Origin: Candidatus Micrarchaeota archaeon
GTDB taxonomy: Archaea > Micrarchaeota > Micrarchaeia > Anstonellales > Bilamarchaeaceae
Direction of reading: 5' to 3'
NCBI GenBank assembly: GCA_038046765.1
Contig: JBBSVN010000011.1
Span: forward strand, 1,152 to 65,151
Length of the DNA stretch: 64,000 nucleotides
The notes under the pieces are model-generated. The model saw only the letters and a program-made list of their open reading frames with translations. It was not told where the DNA came from and made no database searches. A program made the position numbers and the translations under genes. This document shows positions 20,048-54,800 of the stretch, one piece after another; within the stretch, counting starts at the first letter, position 1, and every line of letters begins with the position of its first letter.

Positions 20048-20154
20048 TTATTAGCCATGGGCATTGTACCTTGGGCTAGTGAGCCACGACTCATAACGTG
20101 TTGCTCAATCGCACAAGGCTCATCGCTCAAAGCTAAAATTGTGGTGTTTATACT
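20048..20154 (+). repeat. Copy A of the ~105-nt intergenic element (between the rpoA2 stop and the rpl30e start)
   Basis: Near-colinear with 26905-27015. A 43-nt identical run, gctcatcgctcaaagctaaaattgtggtgtttatactatggca (20118-20160 = 26979-27021), extends into the first two codons of the downstream gene. Confidence 0.85.
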
Positions 20155-27696: not shown

Positions 27697-27745
27697 CTAG
27701 TGAACGACCCAGTTCACTGGATTTTTATTTTTTATTATTCTTATT
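27697..27745 (+). terminator. Hairpin plus oligo-T terminator module (copy 1)
   Basis: ctagtgaac-gaccca-gttcactgg (9-bp stem including one G-U pair) followed by atttttattttttatt. Shares GCTAGTG...CACTGGATTTTTATTT with 35781-35820. Confidence 0.6.
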
Positions 27746-35780: not shown

Positions 35781-35820
35781 CTAGTGGCATCAGTCACTGG
35801 ATTTTTATTTATTTTTATTT
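35781..35820 (+). terminator. Hairpin plus oligo-T terminator module (copy 2)
   Basis: ctagtg-gcatcagt-cactgg followed by atttttatttatttttattt, directly after the L15 stop. Confidence 0.55.
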
Positions 35821-43876: not shown

Positions 43877-46069
43877 TTAAGCTTCTAAGAATTCCTGTGG
43901 TGTTGGTGGGTCTGGTTTATCTCCCTTCCTTTCACGAACCTGTCTAACTGTTTTAGGAACCAAATCCTTTGGCATCATATGATACCCAGCATATTCCTGG
44001 TACCAAATTGCCCTGCCTTGAGTTACACCACGTAATTTATTACTAAATCCGAACATGTCTGCTACAGGTAGTAATGTGTTAACTGTTGCGTTTTCTCCTT
44101 CTTGTTGCATATCTAATAATTGACCTCGCATACCGTTACTCATGTTAATTACATCTCCTGCATAATCCTGCAAAGTTTGTATTAACACTTTTTGCTTTGG
44201 TTCTAACAATGTAGTTCCTGCAATTAACATTGCTGCGTATATCGGTCTTTTTATTGTTGGGATCATTTGTGCTGGTCCTCTATGTATGTTATCTTCGTGC
44301 AAGAACGCATCTGTTAAAGTTACTTTTATTCCAGTTACTCTTTCTTTAGCTAATGGTCCTTTGTCCATTGCCTCTTCAAAACCTTGGACTAAAAGTTCTT
44401 CTATTTCATTTAAGTTTTGGATACCCTTTGTTCCGTTTATGAACATACTTCTGCTGTATATGTCATAAATGTTTCTTGCTTCTTCTCTTTCTAAACCTAG
44501 AGACACTAATTTTTCCCAAACTTCTCGTCCTTTGGGTTTACCATTTGGTATTTCTCCATCATCAATTGCTTTTAAAATTTCTGGGCTTAGGGGTTCAACA
44601 GTTACTTTTAATCGGTTATGTTTATTTGGAGATTTTCCTTCTACAACTGGTGACTTACCTATTATTGTTTCCCGATAAACAACTAATGGCGGAGAAGTCG
44701 TTATTTCTACTTTCTTTTCCTTGCTTATTTTGTATTCGATAATTTCTAGGTGTAATTCTCCCATACCGCTAATTAAGTGCTCGCCCGTATCCTGGTTTAA
44801 TTCCACTCTTAAAGTTGGGTCTTCTTTCGAAATCGATCTTAATACTTCAATTAATTTAGCAAGTTCCTTGTTATTTTTCGCTTCAATCGATTTTGTAACT
44901 ACTGGTTCTGAATAGTGTGTAATCTTTTCGAAAGGTTCAACAATTTCAGAACTTATCGTTTCTCCCACGTATAAGTCTTTTAATCCAACAATCGCACCGA
45001 TGTTTCCTGCAATTATTTTTTCTGCAGCTACTCTATCTGGTCCCATGTAAATTCCGATTTGCTGTACTTTAGCAAATACTTTTTTGGAGTTAATATATAT
45101 CTGGTCGCTTTTTACTACTTTTCCTGAAAATAATCTTATTAATCCGACTTCTCCAGCATGTTCATCATAAACAACTCCTACGCATACTCCGATTGTTTTT
45201 CCATTTGGATCACAGCTAAGCATCATTTTTGCCTGTTCACTTTCTAAATCTCCTTTCCATAGGACTGGGATACGATAAGCTTGCGCAAATTTCGGGTTTG
45301 GTAAATGTGTAATGATCATCTCTAAGAGAACTTCATCTAAGGGTGATTTTGCAACTAATCCTGCGTGGTCTTCTTTTGCGCAGTAATCATAAATATCCTT
45401 AAAAGTAATGTTGAATTTTTTCATTGCTTTTATGCTAACTGCCCATTTATTGTAAGCGCTACCAAAAGCTACGTTTCCTTTATCAACTTTAATCATCCAC
45501 TCATCTTTTTTATCTGCTGGAGCGTTCGCTTCGATAATTTTATTTACTGTGTGGATTACCTTAAGTAATTTTTCCTGCATTGCAACGGGATCTAATTTTA
45601 ATTCGTTAATTAACCTATCAATTTTGTTAATGAATAAAACTGGTTTTGCCCTTTCTTTTAATGCCTGTCTTAATACTGTTTCAGTTTGGGGCATAACACC
45701 TTCTACGCTGTCAACTACCAGCGTAATTCCGTCAACTGCTCTCATTGCCCTTGTTACGTGTCCTCCAAAGTCTACGTGGCCTGGTGTATCAATTAAGTTA
45801 ATTAGATAATCCTTTCCTTCAAATAAGAATCCTAATGAAATGTTTGCAGCTTTAATCGTAATTCCTCTCGCCTGTTCTTGCACATCAAAATCCATTACTC
45901 TTTGTTGACCTGCTAATTCCTTGTTAATTAAACCCGCTCGAGCTACTAATGAATCCGTTAAGGTTGTTTTTCCGTGATCGACGTGAGCAACAATTGCGAC
46001 GTTCCTGATTTGTTCAACCGTTTCCATTAATTTTTGTACTTCGTCTACTACAAATTCCTTTCGTACCAT
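43877..46069 (-). CDS. fusA: Translation elongation factor 2 (aEF-2)
   Basis: AHVDHGKTTL, DTPGHVDF, NKIDR G-motifs. 730 aa. C-terminal diphthamide-loop-like HEDNIHRGPAQ. Confidence 0.95.
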   Translation of the reverse strand: MVRKEFVVDEVQKLMETVEQIRNVAIVAHVDHGKTTLTDSLVARAGLINKELAGQQRVMDFDVQEQARGITIKAANISLGFLFEGKDYLINLIDTPGHVDFGGHVTRAMRAVDGITLVVDSVEGVMPQTETVLRQALKERAKPVLFINKIDRLINELKLDPVAMQEKLLKVIHTVNKIIEANAPADKKDEWMIKVDKGNVAFGSAYNKWAVSIKAMKKFNITFKDIYDYCAKEDHAGLVAKSPLDEVLLEMIITHLPNPKFAQAYRIPVLWKGDLESEQAKMMLSCDPNGKTIGVCVGVVYDEHAGEVGLIRLFSGKVVKSDQIYINSKKVFAKVQQIGIYMGPDRVAAEKIIAGNIGAIVGLKDLYVGETISSEIVEPFEKITHYSEPVVTKSIEAKNNKELAKLIEVLRSISKEDPTLRVELNQDTGEHLISGMGELHLEIIEYKISKEKKVEITTSPPLVVYRETIIGKSPVVEGKSPNKHNRLKVTVEPLSPEILKAIDDGEIPNGKPKGREVWEKLVSLGLEREEARNIYDIYSRSMFINGTKGIQNLNEIEELLVQGFEEAMDKGPLAKERVTGIKVTLTDAFLHEDNIHRGPAQMIPTIKRPIYAAMLIAGTTLLEPKQKVLIQTLQDYAGDVINMSNGMRGQLLDMQQEGENATVNTLLPVADMFGFSNKLRGVTQGRAIWYQEYAGYHMMPKDLVPKTVRQVRERKGDKPDPPTPQEFLEA

Positions 46070-46130
46070 GTTTGTTTCACCAATTTTAATATTTTAGATT
46101 GATTTATATTTTTAAATTTAGAAATATTTA

Positions 46131-46319
46131 GAACCAACTAAGCTCTCTTCATTCTACTTACTTAGAATTAGCGCAATGGTTCTAAATGTCGCGAAGAATC
46201 GTCTTCGCGATCATGCTCGAGAAGCGCACTAGACTTCTCGACATAGATCGAGACCGAATCTACAACTTCAACGAAGTTGGAGAGCTAGTAAATGGTTATC
46301 CTGTTCACTAGAATTTTTT
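46131..46319 (+). ncRNA. Candidate structured ncRNA (GC-rich multi-hairpin island); identity unknown
   Basis: TATA-like tttaaattt ~25 nt upstream. Perfect stems 46189-97/46202-10 (9 bp), 46217-24/46234-41 (8 bp), 46244-48/46258-62 (5 bp), 46263-69/46273-79 (7 bp). Possible closing helix agctctc/gagagct. Terminal hairpin 46285-46311 followed by T6. Strand inferred from the terminator. Confidence 0.35.
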
Positions 46320-46408
46320 CTGTTTCGAGATAGCAAAAACTAGCATTTAGGCTAATTTGCACTTATTAGTTATCATAAGTAAAGAATATAAACGTTTTTA
46401 AAGCTCTT

Positions 46409-46654
46409 ATGCGAAGCTTTTTTATGAAACATGGAGTCTTAGCTTTAATGGTATTTGGACTAGTAATTACTTCCCTGTTTGTTGTGCTTGTTGCACATGG
46501 GGATATAACATTGGATCAAATATATGCCGATTCAAATGATTCTATTAACCTATCTAATCAAACAAGTATGCAATTAGAGATTAGCTATTGTTTTTCCAAC
46601 ATAGATTGCCATAATGGTCAGTTATGTAATTTTACTACGGGTGTCTGTGGTTAA
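46409..46654 (+). CDS. Small secreted/membrane protein with a Cys-rich tail
   Basis: N-terminal hydrophobic helix. C-terminal CFSNIDCHNGQLCNFTTGVCG. TATA-like box ~25 nt upstream. Confidence 0.45.
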   Translation: MRSFFMKHGVLALMVFGLVITSLFVVLVAHGDITLDQIYADSNDSINLSNQTSMQLEISYCFSNIDCHNGQLCNFTTGVCG

Positions 46655-51841: not shown

Positions 51842-54800
51842 ATGAATTTTCATTCACCTAAATTTTATGTTTTCTTTCTATTTATACTGTTGATCAGTAC
51901 TTCTTTTTCACTAGATTTTTTTGTAAATAAATCTGTTTGTACTTATGGCGGCGTTAACGTAGGCATAAATTCCAATCAGACCATTTCACAAGTTTTAATC
52001 GATGCTGCAACTCGTGGGCTTCCGGGGGACAATATATTTATTTGTAACGAATCTGGCATGGTGTATAACGAATCTGTTTTAGTAAATTTTTCCGTGAACC
52101 TTTTTGGTACTAATCTAATTAACCCTCCCAATATAACTAATCCTGGTTCGGACTTATTTTCCGTATTCAATATTACTGTTCCTAATGTAAATTTCACTAA
52201 CTTGTCTATTAATACAAGTACGTCAAACGGTATCTCTATTATTAGTACGTATGGGACGAACATCAATAATACAAATATAACCTCCTTCAATGGAATTGGT
52301 GTCAATATCAGTTTCGCTGAAAATGTTACTTTGGGTGCAATCTACGTAAATGGTACCACTTCATACGCTATATATGTAAATAATAGTAATTCCACTTATA
52401 TCAAAAACAGTAAAATAAACAATATAACTCTAGCTGGAATTACACTTGAAAAATCCAATAATAGTTGGGTAGAAAATAATACTATGCGAAACATAAGTAA
52501 TTCTGCTGCAATTAATGTTTCAGGACTAACCAAGAACAATACCTTTGCTAATAATTCGATTTCCAATGTTTCTTATGGCATATATCTAGGTGCAACAGCC
52601 ATAAATAGTACTATTGTCAATAATACGCTTTCAAATGGTAGCTACTACGCAATTGCAGTTTATGGCGGGGGAGAAATAAATATTACTAATAACAGCATCT
52701 ACGATTTTAATGCTTCAAACTTAGGTATTGGTCTTTATGCCGTAGCAAATTCATATAAAATTCTTTTTGCGAACAATAATGTTTTCAATAGTTCTCTTTA
52801 TGGGATTCAAATTGATCAGACGACTGCCAGCATAATTGAGAATAATACGGTAGTGAATAGTACGAATGATGGGATACGTGTAAGTACAGAAACTGGTGGA
52901 AATAATCTTCTTAAAAATAATACTGTTCATAGATTTGGTAATAATGGGATTCTAATCTCAACGAGCGATAATAACCTAACTAACAATTGGATAAATGGTA
53001 CATCGGATTCTATTGGCGATGGAATTGTTATATCTGGAGTTAATCGAAACATTCTCCTGAATAATACAATTACAAATATTAGCCGAAGAGCAATATGGTT
53101 TGATGGCGCAAATCGAAGTGCAATTATTAATAATACGATATATTCAGCTGATCCTGGCCTCTACCTAAACAATGACGCAAACAATAACAACATTACCAAT
53201 AATACTATTTACAATACCACTTACGGTGCGTATCTGGACACTTTGTCTGATGTTAATAATATAACTAATAACCTGGTCAGAGATAATCAAATCGGCATTT
53301 TCCTAAATTCTGTTTTTGGCAGGTCGGGAAATGTTTTTATAATTAATAATACTCTTAACAATAACACTATCTTCGGCATAAATCTTACTTCTTCATTAAA
53401 CATTACTCTATTTAACAATGTACTCTCGAATAGTACTATCGGACTATCTGTTGGCGTCAATTCTAACAATAACAACATTACAAATAATACGGTGTATAAC
53501 AGCTCCCAAGGATTTTTATTTTTCAATAATAATAATAATACTGTTCTGAATAATACTGCAGCAAACAACACTCTTTTAGGTTTCAATTTTACTTCTGTTT
53601 TTAACAGTTCGATACAAAATAATACTGCAATAAATCTGACATACGGTTTAGTTCTTAGTAATAGCGGGAATAATTCTATAAATCGAAATACTCTTTATAA
53701 TCTTACACGCGGCATATCCTTGCAAGTAAGCGAGAATAATAGTATAACCAACAATACTGTTTCTAATAGTACAGAGTACGGCTATTATCTCTTATCAAGT
53801 AGTAACAATACTATCTCAAATAATACTGCAAAAAACCTTTCTATCTATGGTTTTGTTATTGAAAATTCAAAAGAAATTAATCTAAGTTATAACAATGCAA
53901 CTAATAATTCCCGGGCACAGTATTTTTTAATTAATTCCAACGCAACTTTTACTTCTAACAATTATGCGAGCAATGGTTCTGCGAATTCTTTAGATATTAA
54001 TCTAAGTAATTCTACATTAAGTACAAGGTCAGTAAGTGCATTAAATAATCTTACTACGGAATATCTTTCAATTACTTTTGAGCAGGCTACTAATGCCAGT
54101 TTTAAAACTATTATACGTGGTGATACGGGTATTACAATTAATGCTGATGAAGCTTGTGATAGTGGTCAATGTAATATCGTTACTACTAATGCATATGTAG
54201 TAAATATCAGTGATGTGGTTAGTGAACCAGTTATATCTCACTTGGGTATTTTTGTTGAAGCTAGTAGGATTGCAGGAATTGATACGAGTACTCTTTATAT
54301 GGCCAAATTTAGTAGTTTTTGGACCTTATCTAGTCCTGCAACTCTTAGTGCAGATACTTTGATAACTTCAAATAATCCAATAACCAGTCATGGTTATTAT
54401 GCTCCTTCAAGATATACTCCTAATCCAACTAGGGATTCTAGTTCAAGTTCATCATCAAGTAGTTCTTCACATGATGTAACTACAGAAGAACCTGCTGAAG
54501 AAACACACATCGAACAAGTGAACCAAGAAATTCCCCCTCCGGTAGAAACGAAAAACGATAGTAGCATTCCGCCCGTAGTATTAAATATCACTCCACAAAA
54601 TTTCTGCGGGGATGGTGCATGTGAATACTTTCGCGGTGAAACGATAACTACGTGCCGCAAGGATTGCGGATATTTGTGTGGTAATGGTGTCATTGATAAA
54701 GGAGAAACTTGCGATGGTAGTGATCTTGCTAGTCAAACTTGTAAAACGCAAGGTTACGGCGGAGGAACATTATACTGTAGTGGTTGTACTTCATTTTCAT

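Follow-up and report, generated by a model that had tools for sequence, protein, structure and literature searches.

A hairpin-rich island upstream of the EF-2 gene of a Micrarchaeota archaeon is probably a diverged MITE copy carrying a nested twin-hairpin module

The hairpin-dense island in the spacer upstream of the EF-2 gene of a Candidatus Micrarchaeota archaeon, contained in the 64,000-nt stretch of DNA analyzed here (the window), was found likely to be a MITE of the IS630/Tc1-mariner type, in the form of a diverged copy that is probably no longer mobile, belonging to a repeat family here called type A. The proposal of a discrete novel ncRNA gene at this locus, made in a sequence-only reading, was not supported; the island is one of many dispersed, TA-flanked copies with inverted-repeat ends, which some congeners have and others lack at orthologous sites. 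The copy also carries a nested twin-hairpin (TH) module, which precise presence/absence in a tRNA intron of two relatives suggests to be mobile in its own right.

The spacer comprises 339 nt, from EF-2 (43877–46069, minus strand) to the next open reading frames. All the stems of the sequence-only reading were found at, or at most one base from, the places given for them, i.e. tcgcgaaga (46189) with tcttcgcga (46202), tcgagaag (46217) with cttctcga (46234), tagat (46244) with atcta (46258), caacttc (46263) with gaagttg (46273), attcta (46151) with tagaat (46163) and the long-range helix agctctc (46141) with gagagct (46280), as was the TATA-like tttaaattt, starting at 46111. The tagat/atcta stem was, however, lacking in other copies, where its bases form part of a conserved AUAGA-UCGAG helix. 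The island had been considered GC-rich and was so in relation to the rest of the spacer (G+C of 0.40 in 46124–46336, 0.21 in the remainder and 0.35 in the whole window), but was no different from coding DNA. The plus strand of 46131–46319 folded at −61.7 kcal/mol as compared to −38.8 ± 3.9 kcal/mol for shuffled sequences (z = −5.93, with 0 of 200 shuffles as good), and the minus strand also folded beyond its shuffles (z = −3.44). Such dense stems are explained by an element being built of inverted repeats.

In agreement with the view that no known RNA family is represented, scanning the window with Rfam 15 gave nothing at gathering score and only chance-level matches at E up to 10, with the best sub-threshold matches (snoR24 with 21.9 bits versus 38, and others) falling outside the island, and ARAGORN found neither a tRNA nor a tmRNA in the window. 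When the AUG, CAUG and AUAGA words were compared by eye with the consensus motifs of H/ACA, C/D-box, K-turn and hammerhead RNAs, none fitted, and a BHB intron or split-tRNA leader was discarded because no tRNA-like exons flank the element. To the right of the element lies an 81-codon open reading frame (46409–46654, plus strand) with a hydrophobic N-terminus and a Cys-containing tail, for which no Pfam match was found.

Searching the assembly and 40 relatives at the DNA level gave several partial matches to the central part of the island within the same genome. A covariance model (R1) was made from the aligned longer copies and used with cmsearch, whereupon a full type A match was obtained at 46124–46336 on the plus strand of the window (131.2 bits, E ≈ 1e-29, model positions 1–161), as compared to only 43 bits for the reverse strand of the same copy. 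Since this match covers 213 nt, the extent first assigned to the island (46131–46319) was too short by 17 nt at its end point; the T6 run that had been taken as that end is present (46314–46319) but lies inside the closing helix 46248–54/46322–28 of the last hairpin, HP3. About 10 copies of type A were found in this genome, R1 giving 28 matches with both strands counted, and among 99 genomes of the same Micrarchaeota family 40 had R1 matches, with 0 to 28 or more per genome. A 105-nt repeat at 20048–20154 of the window, also considered as a possible relative of type A, belonged to a different family.

Copies of type A begin with AUAUAC, a first hairpin (HP0, NGAACCAA..UUGGUUCN) and GUAU, have twin hairpins in the middle, and continue with AUAGA, the hairpin HP3 (UCGAG..CUCGG) and GAUAU. 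Single-stranded words were also kept among the copies, namely UAAGUAAUNCCGAUU in the HP0 loop, and AUAGA/GAUAU with tandem G·A. In the window copy, HP0 (46124–46188, plus strand) has the left terminal repeat AUAUUUAGAACCA paired with the internal UGGUUCUAAAUG, and an inner CUAAG/CUUAG stem. In HP3 (46243–46333, plus strand), the right terminal repeat base-pairs with an internal inverted copy of itself, AUAGA and UCGAGAC (46248–54) being matched by GUUUCGA (46322–28) and GAUAG. The expanded form of HP3, also seen in copies of four relatives (G408 L043, G013 L002, G304 L105 and G015 L072), here holds an inner hairpin CAACUUC-AAC-GAAGUUG (46263–46279, plus strand) followed by a conserved GAGAG (46280–84), and thereafter a terminator-like CUAGU...CACUAG-AA-U6 (46285–46319, plus strand). 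Sequence homologous to the hairpin with its GAGAG (46263–46284) was found in G013 L002 and G408 L043, while the module at 46285–46319 was not called in a simple terminator scan. The word CACT[AG]GA[AT]TTTT occurs in 17 copies in the genome, several of them after a complementary CTAGTG arm; those in the window are at 27715–27726, 35795–35806, 46306–46317 and 51909–51920, with 13 more elsewhere in the genome. It sits behind genes as well as within type A and type C repeats, and could represent either the terminator that this organism generally uses or another small mobile hairpin.

We next consider the borders of the element. A TA was found at the left end (46125–46126 in the window) in 22 of 22 copies, and a U-A at the right end (46331–46332) likewise in 22 of 22, making these dinucleotides a candidate target-site duplication. 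The body between them, with bounds drawn in analogy to the filled and empty sites described below, would be 204 bp (46127–46330, plus strand), which is below the approximately 300 bp of MITEs, with no conserved open reading frame and no coding frame of its own. In the consensus of 22 copies, AUAUACUGAACCAACUA at the left matched AUAUCCCGAGCCAAAUA, the reverse complement of the right end, at 13 of 17 positions, whereas the terminal inverted repeats of the window copy itself are degenerate (about 9 of 14, as judged by eye). It is the pairing of each end with an internal inverted copy that gives rise to HP0 and HP3.

The comparison of filled and empty sites concerns loci of G304 and the congeneric G013, rather than the locus of the window. 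Upstream of rpl18e, with flanks 91% identical between G304 (L100) and G013 (C11), the empty site of G013 reads CTCTTCA-TA-AATT and the filled site of G304 reads TTTCCA-TA-[159-nt element]-TA-AATT. In the gap between the aIF-1A and aIF-2beta genes, the element was present in G304 together with some extra sequence and was absent in G013. The two genomes thus differed in presence of the element at both of the two loci that could be compared, with orthologous flanks not being found for a third locus attempted. In the genome of the window, 14 copies had unrelated housekeeping genes as neighbors. The 5′ flanks of the type A copies were unrelated and the TATA-like word of the window was not common to other copies; with nothing shared upstream, there is no common promoter.

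That the stems would be kept by compensatory change in related sequences held true among 22 full copies of type A, in which 94.5% of the stem cells pair and 26 of 42 pairs were changed on both sides, with no shuffle or slid register approaching the observed stem pairing. In helix 1 (HP0), both partners had changed in 6 of 13 pairs and 92.9% of cells were paired in these copies, with corresponding values of 8 of 9 and 97.4% for helix 2 (TH hairpin 1), 4 of 7 and 96.5% for helix 3 (TH hairpin 2) and 8 of 13 and 92.9% for helix 4 (HP3). With three fixed positions set aside, one of which arises from the insert itself, there were 8 G·U and 14 A·C cells. G·U thus showed no excess over A·C, and the stems pair equally well on either strand, which would be expected of DNA palindromes but not of an RNA under selection. 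The six full copies of this genome were only 57–71% identical to each other and are therefore old, but pairing is retained at about 96% of their stem positions, which would not be predicted by plain neutral decay of a dead transposon. Possible explanations are that diversification of the family took place in active lineages and preceded these insertions, that a process at the DNA level keeps the arms matched, or that the fold is under selection. Flank matches were also looked for in order to find an orthologous filled/filled pair with compensatory change in place, but none was found.

The TH module in the middle of the window copy is a 55-nt 5′-GUC...GAC-3′ segment (46188–46242, plus strand) located between an AT at 46186–87 and another at 46243–44. 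It is composed of hairpin 1, UCGCGAAGA-AUCG-UCUUCGCGA (46189–46210), a linker UCAUGC (46211–46216) of the form N-CAUG-N, the CATG of which was invariant in alignment A2 and in all TH copies listed, and hairpin 2, UCGAGAAG-loop-CUUCUCGA (46217–46241), all on the plus strand. The recurring unit is AUG-UCNNGAA..UUCNNGA-N-CAUG-N-UCNNGAA..UUCNNGA-CAU, having a conserved stem sequence (TCNNGAACGA) with free variation solely at the two inner NN pairs, which vary by copy with complementarity kept. Its junction TCNNGA-N-CATG-N-TCNNGA (TCNNGANCATGNTCNNGA) had 11 occurrences in this genome and as many as 12 in certain genomes of its taxonomic family, with approximately none elsewhere in the phylum and approximately none using reversed-pattern controls. 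A gene-free array of 1.3 kb was also seen (G000:C8:57200-58530), containing at least eight TCNNGA-type hairpins with CATG linkers, where some hairpins are nested and the loops are mutually complementary (ACCAGCAGGG / CCCUCUGGU).

Type A copies lacking the TH module read ..GGUUCAGUAUAGAU.. (C1:5052, C12:66871 and C16:25870 of this genome, and L043 of G408), while those having it read ..GUAU[GUC..GAC]AUAGAU.., so that a plain GUAUAG becomes GUAU[GUC..GAC]AUAG at the insert. The module was furthermore found within the HP0 loop or HP3 and in either orientation (L108, L075 and L109), in repeat families other than type A, and by itself at the tips of unrelated helices. In the D-loop intron of tRNA-Lys(CUU) within genus g14, having flanks 85–90% identical, G304 without the module reads GTTTC-AT-CGAAAAG, whereas G013 reads GTTTC-AT-[ GTCAAGAACG..56 nt..GTTCATGAC ]-AT-CGAAAAG. 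It is this precise presence or absence that indicates TH to be a mobile unit in its own right, which would enter at an A-T step either with duplication of AT or by blunt insertion between A and T.

An origin from a tRNA intron or split tRNA was considered because ARAGORN finds only 12 tRNAs and one TH copy lies in the tRNA-Lys intron. This idea was rejected, since the other tRNA introns of the genome are without the motif, the window copy is without exons, and the copy in G013 is an insert inside the intron and not a boundary of it. With regard to the tRNA genes as such, the 12 found by ARAGORN in this 1.5-Mb assembly can be set beside approximately 16 intact T-arms, and the visible genes are interrupted by non-canonical introns, such as those of the D-loop region or within the T-loop (as in G000:C6:18100-18290); most tRNA genes are probably interrupted and undetected. 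The tRNA-Lys(CUU) gene also has a T-loop insert of about 100 nt (GGTTCAAA|...|TCCCTTC) in G304 (L150, on C20) that is not found in G013 (L037, on C3), showing that the content of tRNA introns varies within the genus.

With regards to a possible source of transposase, an IS630-family insertion sequence was found in the relative G015 (L138, 1419–2706), encoding HTH_29/32/33 and DDE_3 domains and having the TA-flanked ends TACCATTCCAACTAA and TACCAAAACAATTAA. The end of this element agreed with the left end of type A (TACTGAACCAACTAA) at 12 of 17 positions, with types B and D being closer. Only 3 of 99 genomes had DDE_3, as compared to 40 having the repeats, and the link to this transposase thereby rests on the similarity of the ends and not on co-occurrence. 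Neither DDE_3 (IS630-type) nor Y1_Tnp (PF01797) was found in this 90%-complete assembly.

Three further types of repeats were noted. Type B has two hairpins, CTATACCGAACCAAC..GTTGGTTCG and ATACCAAAACAAC..GTTGTTTTGGTAT, and is found at G000:C5:22480-22700 and G000:C14:60-290 as well as in G019 (L114) and G406 (L126), with ends closely matching those of the IS630-family element of G015. Type C (G000:C15:7690-7890, G000:C6:114930-115300 and G000:C4:110560-110780) has a perfect 13-bp inverted pair, TTTGAAAAATGCC / GGCATTTTTCAAA, in the C15 copy, with the C6 and C4 copies showing the GGCATTTTTCAAA end, and it also bears TH modules and the CTAGTG..CACT hairpin. Type D, of about 100 bp (G000:C7:82280-82400 and G000:C1:1310-1430), starts with TATACCATTCCAACTAAATTACGCAAATTAAT, which differs very little from the left end of the G015 element.

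Taken as a MITE, the window copy would read TA, HP0, the nested 55-nt TH, an expanded HP3 with two inner hairpins and a U-run, and TA. Elements of type A would have been moved into TA sites by a cut-and-paste mechanism, with an IS630-family DDE transposase acting in trans and with TH as a second and smaller mobile unit inside type A. As the assembly has no such transposase, the window copy is most likely a fossil, and we therefore regard it as a composite and probably fossil MITE. None of the evidence requires an RNA function, and any effect on EF-2 or the neighboring genes would be incidental.

Could the repeats instead be a multicopy structured small RNA, possibly a domesticated transposon, transcribed from the plus strand and with its four-domain fold under selection? 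Such an RNA might be protein-binding or regulatory, or serve as a transcript-end or insulator element. The very strong fold (z = −5.9) would agree with this, as would the pairing of 94.5% of cells with 26 of 42 double changes over 22 copies, the persistence of stems at 57–71% identity in a genome without transposase, the conserved single-stranded words (UAAGUAAUNCCGAUU and AUAGA/GAUAU), the U-run module within the element and a similar copy upstream of EF-2 in G408. These features are, however, to be weighed against the lack of an upstream promoter common to the copies, a patchy taxonomic spread with copy numbers from 0 to 28 or more, the differences in presence among congeners, sporadic G·U not being enriched over A·C, modules occurring in both orientations and a U6 run that lies within a closing helix, and we consider an RNA family to be unlikely. 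A rather improbable possibility is that IS200/IS605 gave rise to TH, and perhaps to the repeat in its entirety, as a REP/PATE-like derivative moved as single-stranded DNA by a hairpin-recognizing Y1 (HUH) transposase. That would fit with the conserved hairpin sequence having free, covarying inner pairs, with insertion without duplication (blunt entry into A^T), and with TH adjoining Y1_Tnp genes in two genomes, being located some 30 nt ahead of the start codon of an IS200-like Y1 gene in G013 (L125, G013:C3:134480-135030) and directly past the stop codon of another in G406 (L126, G406:C61:5120-5760). Nonetheless, TH was near only 2 of the 14 tnpA loci examined, for which reason the link to a Y1 transposase was rejected, and the two TnpA proteins at those loci are only 39% identical. 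Furthermore, the genome of the window as well as G015 and G290 are without Y1_Tnp despite having the repeats (G304 gave only a weak partial match, E 1.3e-9), the 5′ flanks of TH have no conserved target word of 4–5 nt beyond an A, and IS200/IS605 elements have neither the inverted-repeat ends nor the TA duplication of type A.

As an alternative, it had been suggested that the minus strand of the island provides EF-2 mRNA with a structured 5′ leader. The location upstream of EF-2 would fit with this, and the minus strand does fold better than its shuffles (z = −3.4). The element, however, begins 55 nt ahead of the start codon of EF-2, past an AT-rich TATA-like stretch, and R1 gave 131 bits for the plus strand against 43 bits for the minus strand. 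Elements of this kind also lie beside many unrelated genes, while in most relatives EF-2 comes immediately after S7 without an element in between, and the leader is therefore in our view very improbable. A TH-less type A copy in the orientation of that in the window was observed upstream of EF-2 in G408 (L043, on C136, at 440–620), in a gene order of S7, a 176-aa open reading frame, the element and EF-2 on a short contig; G408 holds two EF-2 genes and the bin may be mixed. As the far flank is not orthologous and the identity of the EF-2 DNA is only 75%, synteny at EF-2 was not upheld and common descent of the two copies is at most possible; the G408 copy could nevertheless reflect long retention at the site. 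A gene for a 41-residue protein is scarcely credible. There is an open, ATG-initiated frame at 46186–46311 (plus strand), but it merely crosses the hairpins and has no Pfam match, and the paralogues read ATG TCA TGA or ATG TCG TGA, with in-frame stops coming two to eight codons past the ATG.

A diverged MITE copy thereby being the preferred reading, the immediate consequence is one false candidate fewer among novel archaeal ncRNAs, and the case illustrates that relics of transposons can yield the classic ncRNA signal of AT-rich archaea, i.e. local G+C combined with dense hairpins. It also documents MITE families in the Micrarchaeota, a DPANN lineage with tiny genomes whose mobile DNA has been little described, and brings to light a two-hairpin insert of very small size that comes and goes in a tRNA intron. 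If studied further, TH could reveal how self-folding sites serve as refuges for selfish palindromes, and could help to explain why the tRNA genes of these organisms are so poorly detectable. More speculatively, and with a low probability in our view, either TH may be a new kind of ultra-small archaeal mobile element or type A may have been co-opted by the host as structured RNAs or DNA hairpins. In the former case, TH would enter A-T steps at the tips of hairpins, including those of tRNA introns and of other transposons, and would spread without a recognizable transposase of its own; in the latter, selection on the fold would explain pairing of about 96% at 57–71% identity.

Type A and TH can also be compared with known systems. 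The selfish palindromes known as Rickettsia palindromic elements, reportedly described by Ogata et al. in 2000, are tolerated in functional genes by folding back, which is reminiscent of TH in its tRNA intron; they do, however, insert in frame into protein genes, of which we saw no case with TH or type A. Like the REP/BIME-RAYT systems and palindromes derived from IS200/IS605, the elements studied here form short, conserved, intergenic hairpin clusters, and copies of TH occasionally adjoin Y1 transposase genes. The conserved tetranucleotide and hairpin signature of those systems is nevertheless absent, as is a Y1 gene from this genome, and the outer type A differs further in its terminal inverted repeats and TA duplication. 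With the double-hairpin elements that Paquin, Laforest and Lang are said to have reported in 2000, and with the GC clusters of fungal and other mitochondrial genomes, TH has in common a very short length (55–58 bp), two hairpins, a higher G+C content than its surroundings, locations in spacers, introns and other repeats, polymorphic insertion and no gene of its own. It differs from those in being hosted by an archaeal chromosome and in its GTC...GAC termini, AT flanks, CATG linker and conserved stems (TCNNGAACGA), and the likeness, as with other selfish palindromes, is one of function and not of membership, with no descent implied. The term double-hairpin element is also found in the literature, for example in PMC4478555.

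The closest resemblance was to MITEs of the IS630/Tc1-mariner type. In type A, this includes a size of approximately 110–220 bp, a non-coding nature, imperfect terminal inverted repeats and TA at both ends, as well as many dispersed intergenic copies folding into long hairpins, presence or absence differing among close relatives, and ends that resemble those of an IS630-family insertion sequence of the same lineage. Prokaryotic MITEs that duplicate TA include the Correia elements of Neisseria and the SM-type MITEs of Sulfolobus. Surveys of prokaryotic MITEs have been published as well, an example being bioRxiv 10.1101/2024.01.18.576219. Instead of the one panhandle of MITEs, type A has two separate end hairpins formed via internal inverted copies, and unlike typical MITEs its copies hold a nested second element, its host is a DPANN archaeon with the matching transposase absent from the assembly, and its copies in this genome are old (57–71% identity) yet still paired. 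With these differences noted, type A appears from its sequence features to fit the defining characteristics of TA-duplicating MITEs, with relatives of its host being where a candidate cognate transposase is found.
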